From positions 1 through 48,547 of the forward strand of contig JBHIBS010000012.1 in NCBI GenBank assembly GCA_046759165.1: a stretch of DNA of 48,547 nucleotides, read 5' to 3'. The notes under the pieces are model-generated. The model did not search any database and was not told the DNA's origin. It worked only from the letters and a program-made list of their open reading frames with translations. Every line of letters starts with the position of its first letter. Position 1 is the first letter of the stretch. Below are positions 9,619 to 38,434 of the stretch, one piece after another. The translations under genes and the position numbers were made by a program. Source of the DNA: a bacterium. GTDB lineage: Bacteria > UBA6262 > WVXT01.

Positions 9619-9629
9619 GAGAATTGGTA

Positions 9630-10964
9630 ATGTTAAAGGGCCTGACTGATATTTTCAAAATACCAGAATTGAAGAAGAAGATACTATTTACTCTGGGAAT
9701 TTTAGCAGTATACAGGGTGGGAGCAGCTATTCCTACTCCAGGAATCGATGCTTCAGCGTTGAAAGCTTTTTTTGAAACTCAAAGGGGAACTCTATTCGGC
9801 TTTTTAGATATGTTCTCCGGAGGGGCTCTCAACAGACTGTCTATTTTCTCTTTAGGTATTATGCCCTACATTAACGCCTCTATTATTATGTCTCTTTTAC
9901 AGACAGCCGTTCCCTATCTTGAGAGACTGTCAAAAGAGGGAGAATTCGGTAGAAGAAAGATCACTCAGATAACTCGTTACAGTACAGTGTTCATAGCCGC
10001 TATTCAAGCTTTCGGATTGACTTTCTGGATGCAATCGATGAAAGCGCCAAATGGGGCTGCTATTGTCAAGAATCCTGGCCTTAGTTTCCAAATGATAACT
10101 ATTTTGACTTTAATAACCGGGACTGTCTTTATTGTGTGGCTTGGAGAGCAGATTACGGAAAGGGGTGTGGGTAACGGGATCTCCCTTATTATCTTTGCCG
10201 GTATCGTAGACCGGTTGCCGGTAGCGGTGGGAAATGTCTTTCGTCTGTTCCGAATTGGAGAGATGCAACTCTATCACGTCGTACTTTTGGCAGCATTAGT
10301 ATTTGCTATCACTGCCAGCGTAGTCTGGGTGGAACAGGCTCAGAGAAAGATTAGAGTAGAGTATGCCAAAAGGATTATTGGACGCAAGATGTATGGAGGC
10401 CAGAGCACATTCCTTCCTCTCAAGGTAGACCAATCGGGAGTAATTGCGGTCATCTTTGCTGTGGCTATAATGATGTTCCCAGCAACCGTTGCTCAATTCT
10501 TTCCCAATGTAGGCTTTATGCAGAAAGTTGGTGGCTTCCTGCGACCTGGCCAGTGGGCTTATACAGTTATGTATGGTGGTTTGATTATATTCTTCTGTTA
10601 CTTCTATACGGCAATTACATTCAATCCCAATAATCTGGCTGAGAATATGAAGAAGTGGGGTGGTTTTATTCCGGGGATAAGGCCTGGACAACCGACAGCT
10701 TCCTATATTGACCGGGTATTGACCAGAATTACTCTGGCAGGCGCGTTATTTGTGGTCTGTATTGCGATTCTCCCAGAATATCCTATAAGCTGGGTTAATG
10801 CTCCTCGCAGTCTTGCCTATATCTTCGGAGGAACCGCAATATTGATTGTGGTCGGTGTTGGTTTAGACACTATAGGACAGATAGAATCTCATCTGATTAT
10901 GCGTCATTATGAAGGATTTATGAAGAAGGGAAGAATAAAAGGAAGATACTTTAACATTAGGTAA
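9630..10964 (+). CDS. secY: Preprotein translocase subunit SecY
   Basis: SIFSLGIMPYINASII, GNGISLIIFAGI, FIPGIRPG; ATG 9630 after AGGAG. Confidence 0.99.
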   Translation: MLKGLTDIFKIPELKKKILFTLGILAVYRVGAAIPTPGIDASALKAFFETQRGTLFGFLDMFSGGALNRLSIFSLGIMPYINASIIMSLLQTAVPYLERLSKEGEFGRRKITQITRYSTVFIAAIQAFGLTFWMQSMKAPNGAAIVKNPGLSFQMITILTLITGTVFIVWLGEQITERGVGNGISLIIFAGIVDRLPVAVGNVFRLFRIGEMQLYHVVLLAALVFAITASVVWVEQAQRKIRVEYAKRIIGRKMYGGQSTFLPLKVDQSGVIAVIFAVAIMMFPATVAQFFPNVGFMQKVGGFLRPGQWAYTVMYGGLIIFFCYFYTAITFNPNNLAENMKKWGGFIPGIRPGQPTASYIDRVLTRITLAGALFVVCIAILPEYPISWVNAPRSLAYIFGGTAILIVVGVGLDTIGQIESHLIMRHYEGFMKKGRIKGRYFNIR

Positions 10965-24013: not shown

Positions 24014-25420
24014 GTGAGAAGGGAAATATTAGTTGAGGTAGCTGAAGATGAAGTGAGAATTGCTCTGGTTGAAGATGGCCATCTCGTCGAGTTATTTATT
24101 GAGAGAACAGAGGAGAAGAGTATAGCAGGAAATATCTATCAGGGCAGAGTTGTGAACGTTCTTAAAGGACTTAGGTCTGCCTTTCTGGATTTAGGATTGG
24201 AAAAGAATGCTTTTCTCCCCTTAGTAGATCTTCCACCGGATAAGAGACAGATAAAGAAGGGCGATCGTTTATTGGTTCAGATAATAAGTGAGCCGATTGG
24301 AAATAAAGGGGCTAAGGCCACAGCCAAGATAAGCCTTCCCGGAAGGTATCTTGTGTTCATGCCCAATGTGGAGCATATCGGGATATCAAAGAAAATCCTC
24401 GATGATGAGGAACGGAGGAGATTAAGAGGAATAATTAAGGAGATTACTCCGCCAGGAGCAGGATTCGTTGTTCGCACAGAAGCCAGCGGTCATCATGAGA
24501 AGGATTTGATTCGCGAATGTAAGTATCTTTTGAATTTGTGGCAGATGATAAACAGAGAGAAAGAAGCAATTGGCGAGGGGTATCTTGTTCACAAGGCATT
24601 TGGTCTAATCTTTTATGTAGTGCGAGAACTATTTACTGAGGAAGTAGACCGTCTAATCATAAATTCCCGGGCGGAGTATAAACAAGTGAGAAGTTATGTG
24701 AAGATGATGGATCCTCATCTTCTGAGGAAGCTAGGTCTCTATAAGAAGGAATCACCACTTTTTGAGGTGCACAATTTGGAAAGTCAAATGTCCAAAGTGA
24801 AAGACCAGAAAATTCTATTGCCTTGCGGAGGATCCATTATCATTGAGCAAGGGGAGGCTTTGACTGCGATTGACGTCAACACAGGCAGGTTCGCCGGGGG
24901 GAAAAGTCCGGAAGAGACAGCCTTCCTCACCAATTGCCAGGCAGCTGAGGAGATTATGCGTCAGGTACGCCTTAGGAACATTGGGGGACTGATCATTATA
25001 GACTTCATTGAGATGAAACAGAAAAAATACAGAGACAAAGTTATGAATATTCTACGCCAACAGTCTCTAAGGGATAGAGCGAAGATGGATTTGCTACCCA
25101 TTACCAAGCTGGGACTGGTGGAAATGAGCCGTCAGAGGAGAAGGGAAAGCATCATTAATACACTTTGTCAACCCTGCCCTTACTGTGAAGGCAGCGGATT
25201 GGTATTTTCAGAAAAGACTATGTTTATAAAGATCAAGAAAGAAATTTTAAGGACTGCAACCCAAACAGAGAATAAATATCTTAATATCTTTATGAATCCC
25301 AGAATTGCCCCCCTGTTTGATGGGAAGAGAGTAGAGTACATTTCTAAAATAACTGGTAAGAGGATAAGAATCAGACCCGATTATAAGCTACACATGGAGG
25401 AGTTCAAGATCACCCCGTAG
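24014..25420 (+). CDS. rng: Ribonuclease E/G family endoribonuclease
   Basis: GNIYQGRV, AIDVNTG, RLRNIGGLIIIDFIEM, CPYCEG. Confidence 0.93.
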   Translation: MRREILVEVAEDEVRIALVEDGHLVELFIERTEEKSIAGNIYQGRVVNVLKGLRSAFLDLGLEKNAFLPLVDLPPDKRQIKKGDRLLVQIISEPIGNKGAKATAKISLPGRYLVFMPNVEHIGISKKILDDEERRRLRGIIKEITPPGAGFVVRTEASGHHEKDLIRECKYLLNLWQMINREKEAIGEGYLVHKAFGLIFYVVRELFTEEVDRLIINSRAEYKQVRSYVKMMDPHLLRKLGLYKKESPLFEVHNLESQMSKVKDQKILLPCGGSIIIEQGEALTAIDVNTGRFAGGKSPEETAFLTNCQAAEEIMRQVRLRNIGGLIIIDFIEMKQKKYRDKVMNILRQQSLRDRAKMDLLPITKLGLVEMSRQRRRESIINTLCQPCPYCEGSGLVFSEKTMFIKIKKEILRTATQTENKYLNIFMNPRIAPLFDGKRVEYISKITGKRIRIRPDYKLHMEEFKITP

Positions 25421-26837
25421 AAACGATTTTTTTGTTTCCGGCAGTGAGCTTGCCACTTTTCTCCCTCTTCCTTTCTTCCCAGAGAGGGTCATAGATACTG
25501 TGAATTTCCCGACTATAGGAATTGAGACCCTCGGCAATCTCCCCTCTCAGTAACCCATCTCCGTCGTCTGTAGCTCTGGCACCATAGCTATTAACCAGTT
25601 TTCTTAGCACCCATGGCTGGTCGATAATCATACAGGGCGTCAGGAGGTTATCGCTGTAGGAATGTGCAGCCTTTCCAGCTTGTTGCATTCTCCTTATGGC
25701 TTTAAAGAAAGGCGAGTTCATTACTTCCCAGAGAGTTTTGCCGTGAATGTTATCCACAGCAAAATGGACAAAAGCACAGGGTTCTACATCTCCTTTATTG
25801 TTAATATGCAGGAATAACCTTCCGGCAATGCAACCTTCCACGTGTGGTCCGTCGTTCCAGAAATCTCCTATAAAGATCTCCTTAGTATCTCTCCACTTAG
25901 TCACCTTTTGTCTCAATCTATTTCTCTGTTGGGGTGTGGGCATCATTTCCAGATCTGGTTCCTTTCCTATGGGAACGTACTGAAAGTACCAGCCAAGATA
26001 ACAACCTTTTTCTACCATAAGCTCAACGAACTCATCGCTAGTGAGCACATCTGCATTCTGCCGTGTCATTGTGGCCGAAAAACCGAAAATACATCCTTCC
26101 TCGCTCAAATTATCCATTGCTTCCATAATTTTCTTCCAGACACCTTTGCCCCGACGGCTCTCGGTCTCTTTTTCGAAGCCTTCCACACTGAGATTTACCT
26201 CGACATTTCCTAAATCTGCCAGCCTCCTGGCTGTTTTTCTATCTATGAGTGTCCCGTTGGAATAGACTTGGAAATACGCATCATCGTGCTTTTCGTATAT
26301 ATAGAACATATCTTTTCGCAAAAACATTTCTCCTCCCTGCGTTGTGATAAAATATATCCCCAGATCTTTAGCCTCTAAAATTATTCTATCTATGGTTTCG
26401 AAGGGGAGGTCGTTTTCTGTTGAGTATTCTCGCGTGGAGCATCCCGCACAATTTAAGTTACAGCGCATAGTGGGGCTCAAAACTAAGAAGAAGGGAGGTC
26501 TGACCCCCTCTCTTAATTCTATCTCCTCTCTTTTCCCACTTCCCACAAGGATATTATTAATAAAGAAATTCTCGACGAGCTTGTTTACACATTTTTTGTT
26601 TGGACGGGAAAGTAACTTCTTACCCACTTCTATAGACGGATGGCCTGATTCAAAAATTTTTATTAAATTTCCGATTTTCTTTTTATTATCCAAGTCTCTT
26701 GGCAACTTCCGTGCCAATCGAAGCATGGTGACCAGATTCCTGTCGGAGGCCTTTGGCACTAGCTTGAGGATCCTTCTTATAAGTTCTTTTTGACTATAGC
26801 TTTTAATTTTTCTTTTTGTCTGTTCAAGGATATACAT
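25410..26837 (-). CDS. Radical SAM protein with SPASM/twitch domain, paralog 1
   Basis: SPTMRCNLNCAGC; DFWNDGPHVEGCIAG...HINNKGDVEPCAFVH; PCMIID; clear paralog of 31016-32458. Confidence 0.9.
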   Translation of the reverse strand: MYILEQTKRKIKSYSQKELIRRILKLVPKASDRNLVTMLRLARKLPRDLDNKKKIGNLIKIFESGHPSIEVGKKLLSRPNKKCVNKLVENFFINNILVGSGKREEIELREGVRPPFFLVLSPTMRCNLNCAGCSTREYSTENDLPFETIDRIILEAKDLGIYFITTQGGEMFLRKDMFYIYEKHDDAYFQVYSNGTLIDRKTARRLADLGNVEVNLSVEGFEKETESRRGKGVWKKIMEAMDNLSEEGCIFGFSATMTRQNADVLTSDEFVELMVEKGCYLGWYFQYVPIGKEPDLEMMPTPQQRNRLRQKVTKWRDTKEIFIGDFWNDGPHVEGCIAGRLFLHINNKGDVEPCAFVHFAVDNIHGKTLWEVMNSPFFKAIRRMQQAGKAAHSYSDNLLTPCMIIDQPWVLRKLVNSYGARATDDGDGLLRGEIAEGLNSYSREIHSIYDPLWEERKREKSGKLTAGNKKIVSTG

Positions 26838-26877
26838 CAATATCCCTTATCTGACCATATCTCATTTTCGTTGAGAG

Positions 26878-26898
26878 ATATTTCGTAGAACGAAATAT
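26878..26898. promoter_or_regulatory. Operator-like palindrome
   Basis: Perfect ATATTTCGT-AGA-ACGAAATAT just downstream of the - strand -10 box. Confidence 0.75.
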
Positions 26899-26906
26899 TC
26901 AATTGT

Positions 26907-26934
26907 ATTATAACTTAGTCAAGCAATTTGTCAA
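26907..26934 (-). promoter_or_regulatory. Sigma70-type promoter for radical SAM paralog 1
   Basis: - strand TTGACA-N16-TATAAT. Confidence 0.8.
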
Positions 26935-26975
26935 GAAAAAATTGGAGCTTTTTTCGTTATATTGTGTAGTAGCGC

Positions 26976-27004
26976 TTGACAAAAAGGAAATAAATATATA
27001 AAAT
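26976..27004 (+). promoter_or_regulatory. Sigma70-type promoter for rplU-rpmA-obg
   Basis: TTGACA-N17-TAAAAT. Confidence 0.75.
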
Positions 27005-27032
27005 TTACATAAATTTCATCTGGGGCGTAGTT

Positions 27033-27347
27033 ATGTATGCGGTAATCGAGACTGGTGGGAAACAGTATAAGGTGGAAGAAGGGTCGGTGGTGAGTATTGA
27101 GAAGATTAGTAAAAAACCTGGAGATATTATCGAATTGAGCAATATCCTCCTATTGGTAAATGGTGAAAGAGTAGAGGTAGGAAGACCCTACCTTGATAAA
27201 GGAACGGTATTAGTAGAAGTCAAAAGACATGTTAAGGGAAAGAAAATTATAGTTTTTAAGAAACGGCGGCGGAAAGACTATAAGAAAACACTCGGACACA
27301 GACAACAACATACGGAAGTAAAAATAAAAGAGATAAAGATAGTCTGA
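27033..27347 (+). CDS. rplU: 50S ribosomal protein L21
   Basis: MYAVIETGGKQYKV, GHRQ. Confidence 0.99.
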   Translation: MYAVIETGGKQYKVEEGSVVSIEKISKKPGDIIELSNILLLVNGERVEVGRPYLDKGTVLVEVKRHVKGKKIIVFKKRRRKDYKKTLGHRQQHTEVKIKEIKIV

Positions 27348-27368
27348 CTTCAAAAGGTGGTGGATTTT

Positions 27369-27620
27369 ATGGCTCACAAGAAAGGACAAGGTTCCACAGG
27401 AAACGGCCGAGATAGTGCAGGACGGAGATTGGGAGTGAAAGCTTGTGCCGGTGAATTTGTATCGGCAGGTAGTGTCTTAATTCGTCAAAGAGGTACGAAA
27501 TTCTATCCGGGAATTAATGTAAGCAGGGGAGGTGATGATACCCTGTTTGCTTTGATTTCGGGGCGGGTTAGTTTTGAGCATTTTGGCAAGAGAAGGAGAC
27601 GGGTCAGCGTTTACCAGTAG
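27369..27620 (+). CDS. rpmA: 50S ribosomal protein L27
   Basis: [22 protein letters not shown]. Confidence 0.99.
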
Positions 27621-27668
27621 AGAATCTTGAGAGACCGGAAGTAATCTCGGTCTTCAGGAAAGGCTTGT

Positions 27669-28649
27669 ATGTTCGTTGATCAGGCTAAAATATTTGTGCA
27701 AGCCGGAAATGGGGGCAATGGCTGTGTCTCCTTTCGACGCGAGAAGTTTATTCCTCGTGGCGGTCCAGACGGAGGGGATGGTGGGAAGGGTGGCAACGTC
27801 CTTATTGTAGCATCTTCCGGCATGAAGACTCTCCTCGATTTCTCTCGCCAGCCCCATTATCGAGCCCAAAATGGGGCACACGGGTCAGGAAACAATCGTT
27901 CCGGGAAGGCGGGATCAGATCTGATTTTAAAGGTACCTTGGGGAACCCTTGTCTACAAGGGAGAGGAAGTAATCTGTGACTTAGTGAATGAAGGACAGAG
28001 TGTCATTGTGGCACGTGGCGGTCGGGGTGGAAGGGGCAATGCGAAGTTCAAGTCGCCCTCGGAGCCTCTCCCACGCTTTGCCAAAGAAGGTGAGGTTGGA
28101 GAGAGTGCTACTTTAAGATTGGAATTGAAGTTGATTGCCCAGGTGGGCCTTCTCGGCTATCCCAATGCCGGAAAGTCAACTCTTCTCTCAGCTATTTCCA
28201 GTGCCCGTCCAAAGATTGCCGATTATCCCTTCACTACTTTAGTGCCAAACCTGGGACTATTACGGCTTGGCGAGGGCGAGAGTTTCGCAGTGGCAGACAT
28301 TCCGGGACTAATTGCTGATGCCCATAAAGGTAAAGGTTTGGGTGACCAATTCCTGCGCCATATCGAAAGGACTGAAGTTTTGGTTCATCTGGTTGATATT
28401 CAGGGCTATGAAGGAGCGAGTCCTTTTGATAATTATATGGCAATTAATGCAGAATTGAAAGCTTTCAATCCCAAACTATTGAAGAAGCCGCAGATAATCG
28501 TTGTTAATAAAATGGACATTCCCTCCGCATCAACCAAATTAAGGACTTTTCGTTCCAGGATTAGAAAGAAGGTCTATCCCATTTCAGCCCTTACCAGGGA
28601 AGGCATAAAAGAACTACTTCATGCGATTAGGAGAAGATTGAAAAAGTGA
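27669..28649 (+). CDS. obg: GTPase Obg (short form)
   Basis: FRREKFIPRGGPDGGDGG, GYPNAGKST, YPFTTL, DIPG, NKMD. Confidence 0.98.
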   Translation: MFVDQAKIFVQAGNGGNGCVSFRREKFIPRGGPDGGDGGKGGNVLIVASSGMKTLLDFSRQPHYRAQNGAHGSGNNRSGKAGSDLILKVPWGTLVYKGEEVICDLVNEGQSVIVARGGRGGRGNAKFKSPSEPLPRFAKEGEVGESATLRLELKLIAQVGLLGYPNAGKSTLLSAISSARPKIADYPFTTLVPNLGLLRLGEGESFAVADIPGLIADAHKGKGLGDQFLRHIERTEVLVHLVDIQGYEGASPFDNYMAINAELKAFNPKLLKKPQIIVVNKMDIPSASTKLRTFRSRIRKKVYPISALTREGIKELLHAIRRRLKK

Positions 28650-29746
28650 AGAAGAGAATAGTGATAAAGATTGGCACCACTGTTTTAACCAAACCTTCCG
28701 GGGTTATCAATGAGGTCACTATAAAGAGGATTGTGGACGATGTGGCGGAACTCCTCAACTCAGGTGCGGAGGCAATCATTGTGACTTCTGGTGCAATTGG
28801 CGCGGGCCTGGGGAGGTTGAAATTGCAGGGCCGCTCCATCCGCGAAAAACAGGCACTGGCCAGTATTGGACAGGGCCATCTCATGAGTATATACGAGAAA
28901 TTTTTCAGGAAGCATAATCGCCTGGTGGCTCAGGTTCTATTGACCAGCGACGACCTCGCCCAGCGGCAGAGGTATCTCAATGCCAGAAATACTCTGTTGA
29001 CGCTTCTCGGCCTGGGTGTGGTTCCTGTGGTAAATGAGAACGATACAGTTGCTGTGGAGGAAATTAAATTTGGAGATAATGACAGGCTTTCAGCACTGGT
29101 GGCCAGTAAGGTGGAGGCTGATCAGTTGCTGATTTTGACCGATGTCGATGGCTTCTTTTCTGCAGATCCCCGGGCAGAAAGGAAAGTGAAATTAATAAAG
29201 GAAGTGGAATCGATTACACCCGAGCTGGAGGAGAAGGCTAGTGGGAGGGGAAGCCAGAGAGGAACTGGGGGAATGGTAACGAAGCTTGAGGCAGCCAAAA
29301 TTGCCACTGCCAGCGGCATTACAATGTATGTGGCAAATGGTAATAGAAAAGAAGTCCTCAAAAAGATCTGGAATGGGGAAAACCCGGGAACAAAATTTCT
29401 ACCTGCAAAGGAGAAAATAGTATCCCGTAAACGCTGGATAGCTTTTGATACTAAAATGGAAGGGAAGATTGCTGTTGACGAGGGAGCCAGGGATGCGCTC
29501 CTGAGAAGAGGGAAGAGTTTGCTGCCTTCGGGGATTAGTTCGGTAGAAGGTAGATTTAATCCGGGAGCCTGTGTGGCCGTAGTGGATATGGAAGGAAAGG
29601 AATTCGCTCGTGGATTGACTTCCTATTCATCTGATGAGATAGAAAAAATCAAAGGGAAGAAGTCCTCCCAGATAGAGAAAACTCTCGGCTATAAGGATTA
29701 CGATGAGGTGATACATAGGGATAACCTGGTTGTCTTAAGAGAGTAG
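28646..29746 (+). CDS. proB: Glutamate 5-kinase with PUA domain
   Basis: VIKIG, NENDTVAVEEIKFGDNDRLSA, GTGGMVTK. Confidence 0.97.
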   Translation: MKKRIVIKIGTTVLTKPSGVINEVTIKRIVDDVAELLNSGAEAIIVTSGAIGAGLGRLKLQGRSIREKQALASIGQGHLMSIYEKFFRKHNRLVAQVLLTSDDLAQRQRYLNARNTLLTLLGLGVVPVVNENDTVAVEEIKFGDNDRLSALVASKVEADQLLILTDVDGFFSADPRAERKVKLIKEVESITPELEEKASGRGSQRGTGGMVTKLEAAKIATASGITMYVANGNRKEVLKKIWNGENPGTKFLPAKEKIVSRKRWIAFDTKMEGKIAVDEGARDALLRRGKSLLPSGISSVEGRFNPGACVAVVDMEGKEFARGLTSYSSDEIEKIKGKKSSQIEKTLGYKDYDEVIHRDNLVVLRE

Positions 29747-29771
29747 TATGGGATCTTCAGTGCCAAATATC

Positions 29772-29969
29772 CTTTTTGGCGGAAGGGCAGTTTGTTCGTC
29801 TCTGGCAATTTTTTAACGCTGCGGAAGCCATCTCTCCTCAGGCGCAAAAGCACACTCGTTCCGACTATATCGGAACTCGGACGAGCTTTTGCTTAATTAG
29901 AGATATAGCCCAGATGGTTTCTTCGCTAAAAATTGCAATGTTTCTCACAAACTGCGCCTTAGCCCAAAG
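29772..29969 (+). repeat. Long multi-helix element, probable divergent member (D) of the structured repeat family
   Basis: Helices GCAGTTTGT/ACAAACTGC, GCAATTTTT/AAAAATTGC, GCGGAAGCCATCT/AGATGGTTTCTTCGC, GCAAAAGC/GCTTTTGC, TTCCGA/TCGGAA; shares junction motifs with copies A and B. Confidence 0.65.
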
Positions 29970-29998
29970 TTGTGGAGGGAAAAAGGGTCCAATTTTTG

Positions 29999-30027
29999 TT
30001 GACAAACCCTTGAAGATAAAGTACAAT
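29999..30027 (+). promoter_or_regulatory. Sigma70-type promoter for marR
   Basis: TTGACA-N17-TACAAT. Confidence 0.75.
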
Positions 30028-30058
30028 TAAATAAATTCGCTTGCTGAAGGTGAAATTT

Positions 30059-30520
30059 ATGAGGGGAAAAGAAATTAAAAAATACGCTTCGAGAATGGAT
30101 GATGTATTGCCAGTTTTGGTCAAGAATTTTCAGGTTCCCCGGCTCCCTAAATTGTATGGTACTGAAGTTACTTTGCCACAATATTTTGCCCTGACCACCA
30201 TAACTCGAAAAGGCAAATGTATGGTAGGAGAATTAAGCAAATTATTGGGAGTTAGTGTGAATACTGTAAGTGAACTTGTTGGTCGCCTGGTAAAGAAGCG
30301 CTTCGTTAAAAAGGAAAAGGATGAGAAAGACCGGCGCAGAGTCCATATTCATCTTACCCAATTAGGAAAGAAAATCATTCGCAAGGTTGATTATTGGAAA
30401 AAGAGGCACATCAAGGGAATTTTAAGAAACTTGACCGAAGATGACTGCCGCGTTTTGATTCAGATAATGGAGAAAATGACCGGCACTCCTCAAGAGTTGG
30501 GAGAAGCCAGAAGGCTATAA
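30059..30520 (+). CDS. MarR-family transcriptional regulator
   Basis: VTLPQY, ELSKLLGVSVNTVSELVGRLVKK, DRRRVHIHLT; ATG 30059 preferred. Confidence 0.92.
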   Translation: MRGKEIKKYASRMDDVLPVLVKNFQVPRLPKLYGTEVTLPQYFALTTITRKGKCMVGELSKLLGVSVNTVSELVGRLVKKRFVKKEKDEKDRRRVHIHLTQLGKKIIRKVDYWKKRHIKGILRNLTEDDCRVLIQIMEKMTGTPQELGEARRL

Positions 30521-30532
30521 ATTTTTCAAAAA

Positions 30533-30553
30533 ATAGTTCGTATGCCGAAATAT
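30533..30553. promoter_or_regulatory. Second copy of the operator-like palindrome
   Basis: ATAGTTCGT-ATG-CCGAAATAT; 16/18 arm positions identical to 26878-26898. Confidence 0.7.
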
Positions 30554-30580: not shown

Positions 30581-30886
30581 ATGAAATTCAAGACTTCGGA
30601 TTTAGTCAATAAATTATTGTTAGCCGGATTAGGTTTAGCCACCTTGACTCAAGAGAAGGCAAAAAAATTGGTAGAACAGTTATTAGGAATAGAAAAAATA
30701 GGCAAGGGAGAGACTTCTGCTTTCGTGGAAGAACTGGTGAAAAGAGGAAGACAGACGCAGAAGAAGTTAGAAGACTTAGTGAAGAAAGAGGTAACCAAAA
30801 TCCTGGCAAAAGTTAACTTTGCTTCTAAGAAAGATATAACAGAACTTAAAAAAAGAATTGAAAAACTTGAGGCAAAAAGGAGATGA
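30581..30886 (+). CDS. Phasin/PhaF-like amphipathic coiled-coil protein
   Basis: LLAGLGLATLTQEKAKKLVE...ASKKDITELKKRIEKLE pattern. Confidence 0.75.
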   Translation: MKFKTSDLVNKLLLAGLGLATLTQEKAKKLVEQLLGIEKIGKGETSAFVEELVKRGRQTQKKLEDLVKKEVTKILAKVNFASKKDITELKKRIEKLEAKRR

Positions 30887-30983
30887 TGCGCAAATTGAAT
30901 CTATGCCTACAACAGGCACGAATTCAAATCGCACTGGAGTTCTCCCGAAAGGGAGGGATGACCTTGCTTTCGCAAGGACTCCA
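30887..30983 (+). other. Structured intergenic segment (hairpin plus three-way junction)
   Basis: TTGAAT/ATTCAA and TGCC/GGCA hairpin; TGGAGT/ACTCCA enclosing CTCCC-GAAA-GGGAG and CCTTGC-TTTC-GCAAGG. Confidence 0.55.
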
Positions 30984-31015
30984 AATGAATTTTGTAAAAA
31001 GGAGGTAGAGAAAAG

Positions 31016-32458
31016 ATGAGCAGAGTCATTCAAAAAATTAAGAATTTAGCGATTGAGCAAATAGCCAATCAGGCTATTAAGTTGATGGCTAATTGTTCTG
31101 ATGCAAACTTAGTCAGGTTCGTCTCTCTATTGGAAAAGATTGCTGAGAAATCAAACTCCTCGCGGCGCAAAGGAGAACTCAAATTTGCCAGGAAGCTATT
31201 TGAGACCAGGCACCCTTTGACCCAATGGATGAAGAGAATAGGTAGTGAATTGAATCCGAGGTGCAGAGACCAATTCATTAGACTTGTTATTGTGAAAAGT
31301 CACTTTACAAATCAAGAAAAGAGAAATAGTTTCAGAGAGAAACATGGCTTTTTCGCGCCTACCCAACTGGTTATCAGCCCGACAATGAGGTGCAACCTTC
31401 GGTGTGAGGGTTGCTGGGCTGGGAGCTATGCGGCGGTTCCGGATATGGAAATGGACTTGTTAGAGAGGATTATTGTTGAGGCGAGAGATGAGATGGGTAT
31501 TCATTTCTTCACTATTACTGGCGGTGAACCATTCATTAGAAAAGAGTTGCTTGACCTTTATGAGAAGTTCTCCGACTGTTATTTTCATATTTACACAAAT
31601 GGACTTTTAATCAGTGAGAAGGCTGTAGAGAGGATGGCGAGATTGGGAAATGTAGCTCCTATGATAAGTTTGGAAGGAGGCAGGGAAACTACGGATGCTA
31701 GGCGAGGTAAAGGAGTCTATGACAAAATTACGGCCACCATGAAAATGTTACGGGATAAGGGAATATTTTTTGGGTTCTCAGTTACTGAGACCAGATATAA
31801 TGCCGAAGAGGTAAGTAGTGACGCTTTCATTGATGAGATGCTAAAGCTGGGATGTTTTAATGGCTGGTATTTCCAGTATATTCCCATTGGCTTAAACCCG
31901 AACCCTTCTCTTATGATAACACCAGAGCAGAGAGATATGCTGCGCAAGAGAATATATAAATTCAGAAATACCAAGCCTATCTTCGTCGTTGATTTCTGGA
32001 ATGACGGTCCTGCTATTAATGGCTGTATGGCAGGGGGCAAAAGATATTTACACATTAATTGTCAAGGAGATGTGGAGCCCTGTGTGTTTGCCCATTTCGC
32101 TTGTGACAATATAAAAGAAAAAAGTTTAACAGAAATACTGGAATCTCCATTTTTTACAGCTATCAGGGAAGGCATTCCTTATGATGGAAACACTCTGCGT
32201 GCTTGTATGATTGTTGACCGACCAGAGTTCCTCCGCGAATATTGTAGGAAATTCAATGCCCATCCTACACATAAAGGTGGAGAGTCGATTATTGACCAGT
32301 TAAGTGGTGAAATAGACAAGTATGCTCAAGGAATTGCCAAAATTTATAATAGAGCCTGGCAAGAAGGTGATTGGATAAAACTCTTCTACCTTAGAGAGCG
32401 AAAAGAAGAAGTTGAGGTAGATTTAGACACCTCGCAGACTTTATCCCTACAAGAATAG
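31016..32458 (+). CDS. Radical SAM protein with SPASM/twitch domain, paralog 2
   Basis: SPTMRCNLRCEGC; DFWNDGPAINGCMAGG...HINCQGDVEPCVFAH; ACMIVD. Confidence 0.9.
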   Translation: MSRVIQKIKNLAIEQIANQAIKLMANCSDANLVRFVSLLEKIAEKSNSSRRKGELKFARKLFETRHPLTQWMKRIGSELNPRCRDQFIRLVIVKSHFTNQEKRNSFREKHGFFAPTQLVISPTMRCNLRCEGCWAGSYAAVPDMEMDLLERIIVEARDEMGIHFFTITGGEPFIRKELLDLYEKFSDCYFHIYTNGLLISEKAVERMARLGNVAPMISLEGGRETTDARRGKGVYDKITATMKMLRDKGIFFGFSVTETRYNAEEVSSDAFIDEMLKLGCFNGWYFQYIPIGLNPNPSLMITPEQRDMLRKRIYKFRNTKPIFVVDFWNDGPAINGCMAGGKRYLHINCQGDVEPCVFAHFACDNIKEKSLTEILESPFFTAIREGIPYDGNTLRACMIVDRPEFLREYCRKFNAHPTHKGGESIIDQLSGEIDKYAQGIAKIYNRAWQEGDWIKLFYLRERKEEVEVDLDTSQTLSLQE

Positions 32459-33596: not shown

Positions 33597-34568
33597 ATGA
33601 GAGCATTGGTAACTGGTGGTAATGGATTTATTGGTAGCCATCTGGTGGAAGCATTAAAAAAGAGGGGCTACTCGGTTACTTGCCTCATCAGGAAGACGAG
33701 CAATCTTAAATGGCTCAAGGGCTTGGATGTAAAATTTGTTTATGGAGATTGTACAGAAAGAGAAAGTCTGTATGAGGCAGTAGAAGGTGCGGATTATGTC
33801 TATCATCTGGCAGGAGTAGTGAGGGCTGTCGATCGAGAGACTTACTACGGGGTGAATTTTCTGGGAACAAGAAATTTACTTGAAGTATGTAATAGAATAA
33901 ATCAAAAGATAAAGAAGTTCGTATACCTCTCCAGCCAGGCAGCGATGGGGCCGATTAGTCCTGAGGGTGAAGGGGATTGTCATCCAATCACTGATTATGG
34001 CAAAAGTAAACTTAAGGGAGAAATTGTGGTTCATAATTATAGTGAGAGATTGCCAGTCTTGATTATTAGAGCGCCGGCAATTTATGGACCTCGAGACAAA
34101 GATATCTACACATATTTCAAGTTTCTTAAGAGAGGAATAAAACCTGTCCCGGGGAATGGAGAGGGGCATATGCCCCCACTCTTCTATGTTGGGGACCTGA
34201 TAAAGGGGATGATCTTAGCGGCAGAAAGAGAAAGTTCGAGTGGCGAAACTTACTTTTTTGCAGATGAAAGGTCCTATTCCTGGAAAGAAGCTGCTGATAA
34301 AGCAGCCCGGGCACTGGGAGTAAAAGCAATCAAGATAAACATACCCGGTTGGCTCATTTCGGCATTTGCTTTTTTGTCAGAGTTCTCCTCAGGAATAACC
34401 CATAGGCCAGCTTTAATTGACAGGCAGAAGGCGAAAGAGCTACTCCATGAAGGATGGTTCTGTGATATAAGTAAAGCAAGAGAACGTCTGGGTTTTAAGC
34501 CCAAGTTTAGCCTGGAGGAGGGACTGAGGATAACTGCCGGTTGGTACAAAGATAATGGTTGGCTCTAA
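33597..34568 (+). CDS. Extended SDR (NAD-dependent epimerase/reductase); candidate 3-keto sphingoid/ceramide reductase
   Basis: VTGGNGFIGSHL, HLAG, YGKSK; adjacent to the SPT-like gene. Confidence 0.85.
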   Translation: MRALVTGGNGFIGSHLVEALKKRGYSVTCLIRKTSNLKWLKGLDVKFVYGDCTERESLYEAVEGADYVYHLAGVVRAVDRETYYGVNFLGTRNLLEVCNRINQKIKKFVYLSSQAAMGPISPEGEGDCHPITDYGKSKLKGEIVVHNYSERLPVLIIRAPAIYGPRDKDIYTYFKFLKRGIKPVPGNGEGHMPPLFYVGDLIKGMILAAERESSSGETYFFADERSYSWKEAADKAARALGVKAIKINIPGWLISAFAFLSEFSSGITHRPALIDRQKAKELLHEGWFCDISKARERLGFKPKFSLEEGLRITAGWYKDNGWL

Positions 34569-34600
34569 CTGAACGAACAAATATTACACAGGAGGGAGAA

Positions 34601-35917
34601 ATGGATATTTTCGAAAAATGCGCCAAATTTACAGCTGCCAGGGAGGTAATGGCCGGTGGCTATTATCCCTATTTCAATACAATTGAATCTGCTCAGGACC
34701 CGGAAGTCATTGTCAATGGGAAACCAATGATTATGATTGGCTCGAATGACTATCTGGGACTCACCACCCACCCCAGACTCAAAAGGGCAGCAGCCAGGGC
34801 TTTGAGAAAATATGGGACAGGTTGTACTGGTTCGAGGTTCTTGAACGGGACTTTCGATATTCACGAGGAACTGGAATGCAAGCTGTCTGAATTTGAAGGA
34901 AAGGAAGCAGCTCTCTTTTTTACTACGGGATTTCTCACCAACTTAGGCACTATTGCTGGCTTAGTGGGAAAGGATGACGTGGTTATCACTGATAAACTTG
35001 ACCATGCCAGCATCGTTGACGGCTGTCGGCTCTCATTTGGTGAGACGAGGAGGTTCAGGCATAATAATATGGAAGATTTGGAGAGGACTCTGGAGTCCAT
35101 TGATCACTCGCGAGGTAAATTCATTGTGGTGGATGGAGTGTTCAGCACGGAGGGAGACATTACTAATCTGCCGGAGATAGTGAGGTTGGGCAAGAAGTCT
35201 GGAGCCAGAGTTATGGTTGACGATGCCCATGCCATTGGCGTTTTGGGGAAAGGTGGTAGAGGTACAACCGAGCATTTTGGTTTACAGGATGAAGTGGACA
35301 TCATAATGGGAACTTGCAGTAAGTCTCTGGCCTCTATTGGAGGATTTGTCGTTTCTTCTGAAGAGGTGATTCACTATTTGAAGCATCATGCACGGGCATT
35401 GATCTTTAGTGCCAGCCCTCCACCGGCTTCGGTAGTTGTAGTTTTAGAGGCCTTGAAAATTATAGAGGAGGAACCTGAGCGCCGAGAACAATTATGGAGA
35501 AATACGAGAAAGATGAAAAAGGGCTTCCAGGAGATGGGATACGATACGGGCACCAGTGAAACCCCTATCATTCCTCTTCTCGTTGGAGATGATATGGAGG
35601 CCTTTAAGATGCGAAAAATTCTCTTCGAAAATGGCGTATTCTCCAACCCGTTTATTAGTCCAGCTGTTCCTAAAGGGAAAGCTGTAATTCGTACCAGTTA
35701 TATGGCTACCCATACAACCGAACAATTAGACAGAGTCCTGGAAATTTTTGAAAAGGTGGGAAAACAGTTAGGGATAATTCCTGGTCGAAGACTCCCACGG
35801 AGAAGGCGGCCCCCCACCCTGAGGGCCAGAATGAGAAGGGGAAGAATGGTGATGAAAGAGGGGATCAGGAGAAGATTTAAGAGTTGGATGGAGAGAATAT
35901 ATGGAGTGAGGCAATAG
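34601..35917 (+). CDS. spt: PLP-dependent alpha-oxoamine synthase, serine palmitoyltransferase-like, with Arg-rich C-terminal tail
   Basis: YYPYF...GSNDYLGLTTHP, GTGCTGSRFLNGT, HASI, DDAH, GTCSKS; N-terminus resembles Bacteroidota-type SPT more than BioF/Kbl. Confidence 0.75.
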   Translation: MDIFEKCAKFTAAREVMAGGYYPYFNTIESAQDPEVIVNGKPMIMIGSNDYLGLTTHPRLKRAAARALRKYGTGCTGSRFLNGTFDIHEELECKLSEFEGKEAALFFTTGFLTNLGTIAGLVGKDDVVITDKLDHASIVDGCRLSFGETRRFRHNNMEDLERTLESIDHSRGKFIVVDGVFSTEGDITNLPEIVRLGKKSGARVMVDDAHAIGVLGKGGRGTTEHFGLQDEVDIIMGTCSKSLASIGGFVVSSEEVIHYLKHHARALIFSASPPPASVVVVLEALKIIEEEPERREQLWRNTRKMKKGFQEMGYDTGTSETPIIPLLVGDDMEAFKMRKILFENGVFSNPFISPAVPKGKAVIRTSYMATHTTEQLDRVLEIFEKVGKQLGIIPGRRLPRRRRPPTLRARMRRGRMVMKEGIRRRFKSWMERIYGVRQ

Positions 35918-38289: not shown

Positions 38290-38314
38290 CAGTGGCAGAG
38301 CAGCGGTTTCGTAA
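38290..38314 (+). other. tRNA-Thr(CGT)-like fragment, possible att scar
   Basis: CAGTGGCAGAGC-A-GCGGT-TTCGTAA fits D-loop/D-stem 3' strand, anticodon stem 5' strand and the anticodon loop; no acceptor or T arm. Confidence 0.5.
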
Positions 38315-38434
38315 GGCGAAGAAGGGCAAACGAAAAAGTCCTTAAAATTTAAGAGGAATCAGTAATTTCAATACTTTTTCTGAATTCCCCTCCTTATGAG
38401 AATTTATGAAATTTTAGGGGAATTAATACTTTAG

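Follow-up and report, generated by a model that had tools for sequence, protein, structure and literature searches.

In a stretch of bacterial DNA of 48,547 nucleotides (contig JBHIBS010000012.1 of assembly GCA_046759165.1, positions 1 to 48,547 of the forward strand; GTDB lineage UBA6262; WVXT01), which we call the window throughout, a palindrome with two 9-nucleotide arms around a 3-nucleotide centre occurs twice: once at the promoter of a gene for a radical SAM/SPASM protein (paralog 1), and once directly behind a gene for a MarR-family regulator, where a phasin-like gene, a second radical SAM/SPASM gene (paralog 2) and a group of putative lipid genes follow. The features on which the analysis turns are these:

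25410 to 26840, minus strand: radical SAM/SPASM paralog 1, 476 amino acids when read from a TTG, with an ATG at 26837; PF04055 and PF13186
26878 to 26898, no strand: site 1, candidate operator at about +2 to +23 of the paralog 1 transcript
26907 to 26934, minus strand: promoter of paralog 1, TTGACA-16-TATAAT, 12 of 12 consensus positions
29999 to 30027, plus strand: promoter of marR, TTGACA-17-TACAAT, 11 of 12 consensus positions, without a TTCG-N5-CGAA site
30059 to 30520, plus strand: MarR-family regulator, 153 amino acids from the ATG used by its homologues (open reading frame (ORF) with a TTG start from 30041; stop codon at 30518 to 30520)
30516 to 30521, plus strand: -10-like box TATAAA, overlapping the marR stop codon and followed by an invariant TTTTTC; possible internal promoter
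30533 to 30553, no strand: site 2, candidate operator between marR and the phasin-like gene, in the same place in all eight loci compared below
30581 to 30886, plus strand: phasin-like protein, 101 amino acids, the first gene after site 2; PF05597 with 31.7 bits (cut-off 28.8)

When the sequence is read directly, site 1 is ATATTTCGT-AGA-ACGAAATAT, a perfect palindrome, and site 2 is ATAGTTCGT-ATG-CCGAAATAT, which differs from it at two of the 18 specified positions; within the window, the half-site ATANTTCG is confined to these two places. A preliminary description of this DNA had given both positions, the 16/18 match and the consensus promoter of paralog 1, all of which are correct, and had placed site 2 between marR and a row of phasin, radical SAM, glycosyltransferase (GT), short-chain dehydrogenase/reductase (SDR) and serine palmitoyltransferase (SPT) genes, with which our ORF, Pfam and NCBIfam calls agree. 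A search of the window allowing up to three mismatches returned only these two places, against 0.02 expected, and none of 100 shuffled windows reached two. Since site 1 served as the seed of that search, the relevant figure is the chance of one second site with at most two mismatches, which an exact calculation puts at 0.0025 per window (0.012 at 70% A+T); any such site was present in 9 of 5000 shuffled windows.

For comparison, species-representative genomes were scanned with an alignment of MarR relatives; 33 stretches matched, eight of which encode a relative, and these reduce to seven distinct loci from metagenome-assembled genomes (L001 to L007), with MarR proteins 78-88% identical. The window and these seven make up the eight loci considered here. 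Scanned with up to four mismatches allowed, they contain ten sites, all at the two orthologous positions; the sites of L006 were found by reading its intergenic DNA, where site 2 has five mismatches and site 1 a longer spacer. Site 2 is accordingly present in 8/8 loci and site 1 in 4/4 of those carrying paralog 1 (the window, L004, L006 and L007), so that phylogenetic footprinting, named as a check in the preliminary description, came out in favour of a functional element. In L003, both paralog 1 and a site between rng and rplU are lacking, an absence that a run of N there leaves uncertain, and the contigs of L001, L002 and L005 are without the region that would hold paralog 1. The sites share the consensus ATAnTTCGT-N3-nCGAAnT(A/T)T, of which the core ATAnTTCGT-N3-nCGAA is invariant and the flanks drift. 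A matrix built from 11 sites scores them at 22-29, and the next best match in 132,330 nucleotides, at 10.6, lies inside the SDR gene; as the matrix was trained on the same sites, this shows only that the 132,330 nucleotides hold no further site. The genome-wide motif scan proposed earlier is in this way answered for 132 kb.

At both places, the sites are better conserved than what surrounds them. Between paralog 1 and its neighbour, 14 of the 18 specified positions of site 1 are invariant in the four loci, versus 62 of 202 in the remaining intergenic region; the four promoter hexamers score 6/6 each in the same comparison. The paralog 1 promoter (26934..26907, minus strand) faces the ORF at 25410-26840 and ends 8 nucleotides ahead of site 1; in 4/4 loci, both of its hexamers and the 16-nucleotide spacer are identical, and site 1 begins 8 or 10 nucleotides past the -10 box. 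In the marR-phasin junction, all eight loci agree at 13 of the 18 specified positions of site 2 versus 11 of 49 other non-coding columns, and six of those 11 are the TTTTTC just past the marR stop codon. In L001, L002 and L005, furthermore, the marR gene with its promoter is still joined to site 2 and the phasin-like gene despite altered DNA upstream; because site 2 still follows marR there, the regulator gene, site 2 and the phasin-like gene appear to travel as one module. Site 2 also persists in L001, L002, L003 and L005, where paralog 2 is missing.

The protein encoded next to site 2 passes the Pfam thresholds for MarR (PF01047, 46.6 bits with a cut-off of 24.6; PF12802, 42.3 bits with a cut-off of 27) and matches 48 MarR-type sequences in the PDB, the best being 2rdp (residues 20-146 of 159, 5e-13); its size and its alignment to solved MarR dimers are those of the family. 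None of the NCBIfam equivalog models tried against it was passed (BilQ, 55 versus 125 bits; FabT, 49.2 versus 200; TIGR04472, 19.6 versus 240), and identification as FabT or as the MarR of a radical SAM mobile pair was rejected, both scores being far below the cut-offs. The database holds 22 close relatives (74-100% identical), across which the recognition-helix region VNTVSELV.RL is invariant, paralleling the invariant core of the DNA sites; the half-sites vary among the loci between CGAAATAT and CGAAC(T/C)TT while the recognition helix stays the same. Among the 62 ORFs of the window that were scanned, this MarR is the only DNA-binding regulator.

The promoter of marR is itself well kept, with TTGACA and a TA[ACG]AAT box in all eight loci. 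No TTCG-N5-CGAA was found at any of the eight copies, where stray TTTCGT half-sites occur in only two or three, and an autoregulatory site at this promoter was ruled out, the palindrome being absent there in 8/8 loci. Its -35 box lies inside a 5-2-5 inverted repeat, TTTGT-TG-ACAAA (29995-30006), whose TTGTTGACAA core is found in all eight loci; a MarR dimer would need a longer repeat, and promoter conservation alone could account for this one. Upstream of the promoter, about 250 nucleotides separate it from proB (29747-29990), with a nominal ORF of 84 amino acids that matches no family and nested hairpins such as GTTCCGACTATATCGGAAC. This stretch is conserved in L004 and L007, replaced in L006 and N-masked in L003, and it gave no match in Rfam.

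We regard it as reasonably likely that both palindromes are operators of the adjacent MarR, a binding suggested by their linkage to its gene. In size, dyad symmetry, AT-rich flanks and position at the start of transcription, the sites would fit a MarR-type repressor. The inverted pentamers (T/G/C)TTCG and CGAA(A/C), with centres about 10 bp apart, would each take up one recognition helix of a dimer, the two helices lying in successive major grooves, and the wings would reach into the AT-rich ATA/TAT sequences on either side. When bound at site 1, such a dimer would cover about +2 to +23 of the perfect-consensus promoter and thereby shut off paralog 1. At site 2, MarR might occlude a weak internal promoter at TATAA(A/T) that has no -35 box, or might form a roadblock to polymerases reading through from the operator-free marR promoter. 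TATAA(A/T) stands 11-12 nucleotides ahead of site 2 in 8/8 loci and is retained despite a Leu/Val change in the last codon of marR; this retention, together with a spacing like that of the -10 box at site 1, argues for the internal promoter. The two mechanisms are not separable here, and either predicts repression of the phasin-like gene. A signal, perhaps a ligand, would then release the repressor and switch on both loci jointly.

Repression from site 2 would probably extend to the genes behind the phasin-like gene, which are the following:

31016 to 32458, plus strand: radical SAM/SPASM paralog 2, 480 amino acids
32477 to 33592, plus strand: glycolipid glycosyltransferase of family 28 (GT28), resembling monogalactosyldiacylglycerol synthase; PF06925 and PF04101; model for diglucosyl-diacylglycerol synthase, 222 bits (cut-off 500)
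33597 to 34568, plus strand: NAD-dependent epimerase/SDR; PF01370; best NCBIfam model HpnA-like, 136 bits, below its cut-off
34559 to 35917, plus strand: SPT-like alpha-oxoamine synthase; PF00155; NF047600 (SPT, CFB type), 552.9 bits

From paralog 2 to the SPT-like gene, neighbours are 4-18 nucleotides apart or overlap, and wherever a locus extends far enough, the genes follow one another as phasin, GT28, SDR and SPT; this tight packing and conserved order suggest that the lipid genes are probably controlled through site 2. The SPT-like protein has NF047600 as the best of 18 families (cut-off 640), followed by BioF/Kbl with 432.7 bits (cut-off 535). Taken together, the GT28, SDR and SPT-like proteins look like members of a sphingoid or glycolipid pathway, each scoring below its NCBIfam equivalog cut-off. 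The phasin-like gene is found in 7/7 related loci, and phasin-related NCBIfam models match its product below their cut-offs. In several relatives, the phasin-like protein ends in variable tandem repeats rich in Lys, Glu and Asp, built of GAGGACAAA units (about 1260-1350 in L001, 10820-10900 in L004 and 8560-8630 in L007); the copy in the window is without them.

What the two radical SAM enzymes do in this company is less clear. They belong to a large family, to which 5229 of 8000 scored candidates could be assigned at E <= 1e-10 and which is spread across anaerobic phyla; for paralog 2, the protein atlas gave only clusters named 'radical SAM/SPASM, Bacillota'. The AlphaFold2 (AF2) model of paralog 2, with a predicted local distance difference test (pLDDT) score of 91.7, has the SPASM radical SAM fold and an extra N-terminal helical domain, and its nearest solved folds in Foldseek are the peptide maturases SuiB, SkfB and CteB, together with anSME, at a TM-score of about 0.5. 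A lipid enzyme of this superfamily is Mss, the bacterial membrane-spanning lipid synthase, which is described in PMC13159169 as a radical SAM enzyme of anaerobes, with homologues recognised there by E <= 1e-50 and at least 30% identity to the Mss of T. ethanolicus or T. maritima. Identity with the tetraether synthase Tes/GDGT-MAS (7tol) was rejected: the profile match of 1.8e-11 is confined to the radical SAM core (positions 116-223), no single-sequence match was obtained at 1e-5, and 7tol is not among the Foldseek matches listed. Judged by the model and the atlas, neither a lipid nor a peptide substrate is favoured for paralog 2, and the shared operator is currently the sole argument that the radical SAM enzymes work with the lipid genes.

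Several observations weigh against the proposal that MarR acts through both sites. All eight loci come from one narrow clade, so that their conservation partly reflects relatedness. The spacer of site 1 in L006 is longer by one nucleotide (TTCG-N6-CGAA), a change that a rigid dimer may find hard to accommodate. The promoter scan of the marR-phasin junction gave no full promoter and no recognisable -35 box, and the operator-free marR promoter means that the autoregulatory layout usual for MarR is absent. Between the phasin-like gene and paralog 2, a gap of 130 nucleotides (30887-31015) leaves control of the downstream lipid genes from site 2 not assured. The AF2 model of MarR, finally, computed from the 22 close homologues, reached a pLDDT of 45.8 and is unusable. 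The preliminary description had joined the solitary radical SAM gene and the lipid operon in one regulon, and this claim stands in part: one conserved class of cis-element is tied to marR and paralog 1 (8/8 and 4/4 loci, no others in 132 kb), whereas the lipid operon part is weakened by the lack of a recognisable complete promoter before site 2, by the absence of paralog 2 in 4/8 loci and by peptide-modifying enzymes as the nearest folds of the radical SAM protein.

The palindrome might, for instance, be the site of another regulator encoded elsewhere, with MarR acting on other sequences or genes. The DNA inspected amounts to 48.5 kb from this genome and 84 kb from its relatives, and a marR promoter devoid of the motif is unusual for MarR systems. 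Against this, the site lies within 11-12 nucleotides of the stop-codon box of marR in 8/8 loci despite rearrangement upstream, and the module contains no further conserved palindrome of a size suited to MarR. To our knowledge, furthermore, the motif is unlike the CcpA cre, CodY, Rex and Zur sites, the LexA Cheo box, the Spo0A 0A box and the PurR PurBox. We therefore consider another regulator unlikely.

Another alternative keeps MarR at both sites and limits site 2 to the phasin-like gene, the lipid genes being served by a promoter of their own in the 130-nucleotide gap. That gap is hairpin-rich and variable between loci, and a weak promoter-like match (9/12) lies at 30858-30887. No terminator was called in the gap, however, and the close packing from paralog 2 onwards and the constant order of phasin, GT28, SDR and SPT do not favour a separate unit; such a division seems quite improbable. 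As to its content, the gap holds GNRA-type hairpins, CTCCCGAAAGGGAG and CCTTGCTTTCGCAAGG, which recur in several relatives in variable arrangement and may be elements for the stabilisation or processing of mRNA. In the four loci lacking paralog 2 between phasin and GT28 (L001, L002, L003 and L005), a small conserved hairpin resembling GGCACGGTTTTAACCGTGC stands in its place ahead of GT28.

The palindrome could also act as RNA, namely as a hairpin that site 1 would form at the 5' end of the paralog 1 mRNA and site 2 in the intercistronic RNA between marR and the phasin-like gene, with a function in stability, processing or protein binding. Both sites are probably transcribed, site 1 of the window folds well (-7.7 kcal/mol, z = -4.4), and a hairpin would not suffer from an altered loop length such as that of L006. 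Among the seven of 12 sites that were folded, however, the other six reach only -1.8 to -5.3 kcal/mol (z from +0.42 to -3.0), and the minimum-energy fold of site 2 of the window differs from the palindrome hairpin. When pairs were counted on all 12 aligned sites, four of the nine never vary and three deviate only by unpaired cells, two positions being unpaired in 6/12 sequences; the paired fraction of 83.3% compares with 80.9% in shuffles, 31 of 500 of which reach 83.3%. Rfam at gathering thresholds gave no match in the whole window, and no terminator was called at either site, nor an attenuator at site 2. Because the folds are weak and covariation is absent, it is the letters of each half-site that are conserved and not their pairing, as is characteristic of a site where a protein binds double-stranded DNA. 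An identity as a structured RNA element or terminator was rejected on these grounds, and we hold a hairpin function of the palindrome to be very unlikely. A chance resemblance without function, lastly, is barely credible: a single perfect palindrome with 9-bp arms is, by estimate only, no great rarity in AT-rich DNA of 48.5 kb, but no more than 0.0025 second sites are expected, and both positions are kept across the clade while neighbouring bases vary.

The operators that we propose for MarR lie in core chromosome. The window begins with the S10/spc/alpha ribosomal operons, continues with mreB-mreC, the PBP2 gene and rodA, and then with a TIGR03960 radical SAM gene, DUF2344, rng, paralog 1 on the opposite strand, rplU-rpmA-obg-proB and marR; behind the SPT-like gene come cdaA, glmM and further housekeeping genes. 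The composition profile gave no signal of foreign DNA around either locus. Paralog 1, placed antisense between rng and rplU and 41% identical to paralog 2 over 457 amino acids, is the sole minus-strand gene in an otherwise co-directional stretch of 48 kb, and its 3' end overlaps that of rng, on the plus strand, by 11 nucleotides (25410-25420). Further downstream, a third TTCG-N5-CGAA at 38308 was considered as an operator and rejected, since its flanks differ, its matrix score is lower than those of the 30 best matches listed, and L002 and L004 do not retain it at the corresponding position. This third copy is part of a tRNA-like fragment (38290-38330; 19765-19815 in L004) with a D-arm-like GTAGCTCAGTTGGTAGAGCA in L004 and an anticodon-arm-like CGGTTTCGTAA.CCGAAG. 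Neither ARAGORN, which found no tRNA in the window or in L004, nor Rfam calls a tRNA in the fragment; a decayed tRNA and a scar left by integration are both conceivable origins.

In the three loci with altered upstream DNA, the marR promoter is preceded by a gene for an SBBP beta-propeller protein and one for a PorV-like outer-membrane protein, the replaced stretches being 1-2385 in L002, 1-430 in L001 and the part upstream of 2640 in L005. The SBBP protein has a weak match of 19 bits to a sorting tail of the type IX secretion system, and the PorV-like protein scores 23 bits (cut-off 27). An ORF with SBBP-like repeats was also read by eye between proB and marR in L006 (9400-9960). As for the lineage, the SecY protein of the window (9624-10964) has 20 relatives with an organism name, 63-69% identical, of which 17 are assigned to Elusimicrobia, Elusimicrobiota or Endomicrobiales, three are plain 'bacterium' and none is from Clostridia; the records of L001-L007 are titled 'Clostridia bacterium', at odds with these relatives. 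The organism is probably a diderm near Elusimicrobiota.

Regarding the signal, C54 and C130 of MarR are nearly invariant in the 22 homologues, and a third cysteine at position 113 is present in most of them and replaced by Trp in the window; a thiol-based signal is conceivable. The acyl ligand suggested in the preliminary description is neither favoured nor disfavoured by the sequences. One may go further and imagine MarR as the switch of a conditional envelope-lipid programme, in which the SPT-like, SDR and GT28 enzymes, a phasin-like coat and two lipid-modifying SPASM enzymes (for example in an Mss-like coupling of tails) would be controlled together, with site 2 as a roadblock, in a diderm probably related to Elusimicrobiota. 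We doubt that so detailed a picture is right as a whole. The value of the present analysis lies rather in the functional link, since a shared operator ties a large, uncharacterised family of SPASM radical SAM enzymes to a sphingolipid-like glycolipid cluster and a phasin-like protein. This link provides a testable hypothesis for the role of the radical SAM enzymes, and the repressor with its signal would offer a handle on the timing of lipid remodelling. Should these enzymes act on lipids, the finding would also be relevant to efforts to identify bacteria that make unusual membrane lipids.

Among known systems, MepR of Staphylococcus aureus, which controls mepR and mepA, is close in architecture. 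According to PMC3936728, MepR binds GTTAG-N4-CTAAC, with its wings in the AT-rich flanks, over the -10 box and the transcription start site, and the introduction of that paper states that MarR repressors commonly act at such promoter-proximal positions. As far as MepR is described there, the likeness consists in inverted pentamers with a short spacer (GTTAG-N4-CTAAC as compared with nTTCG-N5-CGAAn), in AT-rich flanks for the wings, in coverage of the -10 and start region and in one regulator serving two promoters. MepR differs in repressing its own promoter, whereas here the marR promoter is without a site and one operator lies downstream of marR; its target is an efflux pump instead of radical SAM and lipid genes, and the two are not orthologous in sequence. 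For MarR and marO of E. coli, in the accounts drawn on here, the likeness extends to a winged-helix protein of about 150 amino acids and a pseudo-palindrome of about 20 bp that overlaps the core promoter. The marRAB operator, in contrast, precedes marR and makes it autoregulated, while the operator described here follows the marR stop codon and the marR promoter is operator-free.

The preliminary description had also likened the regulator to FabT of streptococci, a comparison that holds at the level of the family and not beyond it. Both are MarR-family proteins with lipid-related targets, FabT is the second-best NCBIfam model and 6jbx is matched at 1.7e-8; the score for NF050133, however, is 49.2 bits with a cut-off of 200, so that the protein is not an orthologue, and no fab genes occur among the 62 ORFs scanned in the window. 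The operator of FabT is a different palindrome. The logic of FabT, in which acyl-ACP is a co-repressor, is moreover the opposite of the ligand-induced release proposed here. TIGR04472, the MarR of the radical SAM mobile pair, resembles our case in being a MarR-type regulator associated with two radical SAM genes, but its model scores 19.6 bits against a cut-off of 240, and the radical SAM genes here are paralogs lying 4 kb apart; models of the mobile-pair radical SAM proteins are not among the best 25 of the 49 and 63 family matches of the two paralogs.

The literature searches listed no publication on this regulator, motif or cluster. By comparison with the systems above, and with the family tests that could be run having been passed, the regulator and its two sites appear to work like a classical MarR repressor-operator system with one unusual feature, namely an operator placed after the stop codon of the regulator and combined with an operator-free regulator promoter. 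We know of no intercistronic roadblock directly after the repressor's own stop codon among MarR proteins; if site 2 is truly a roadblock, it would therefore represent an unusual layout for a MarR system.

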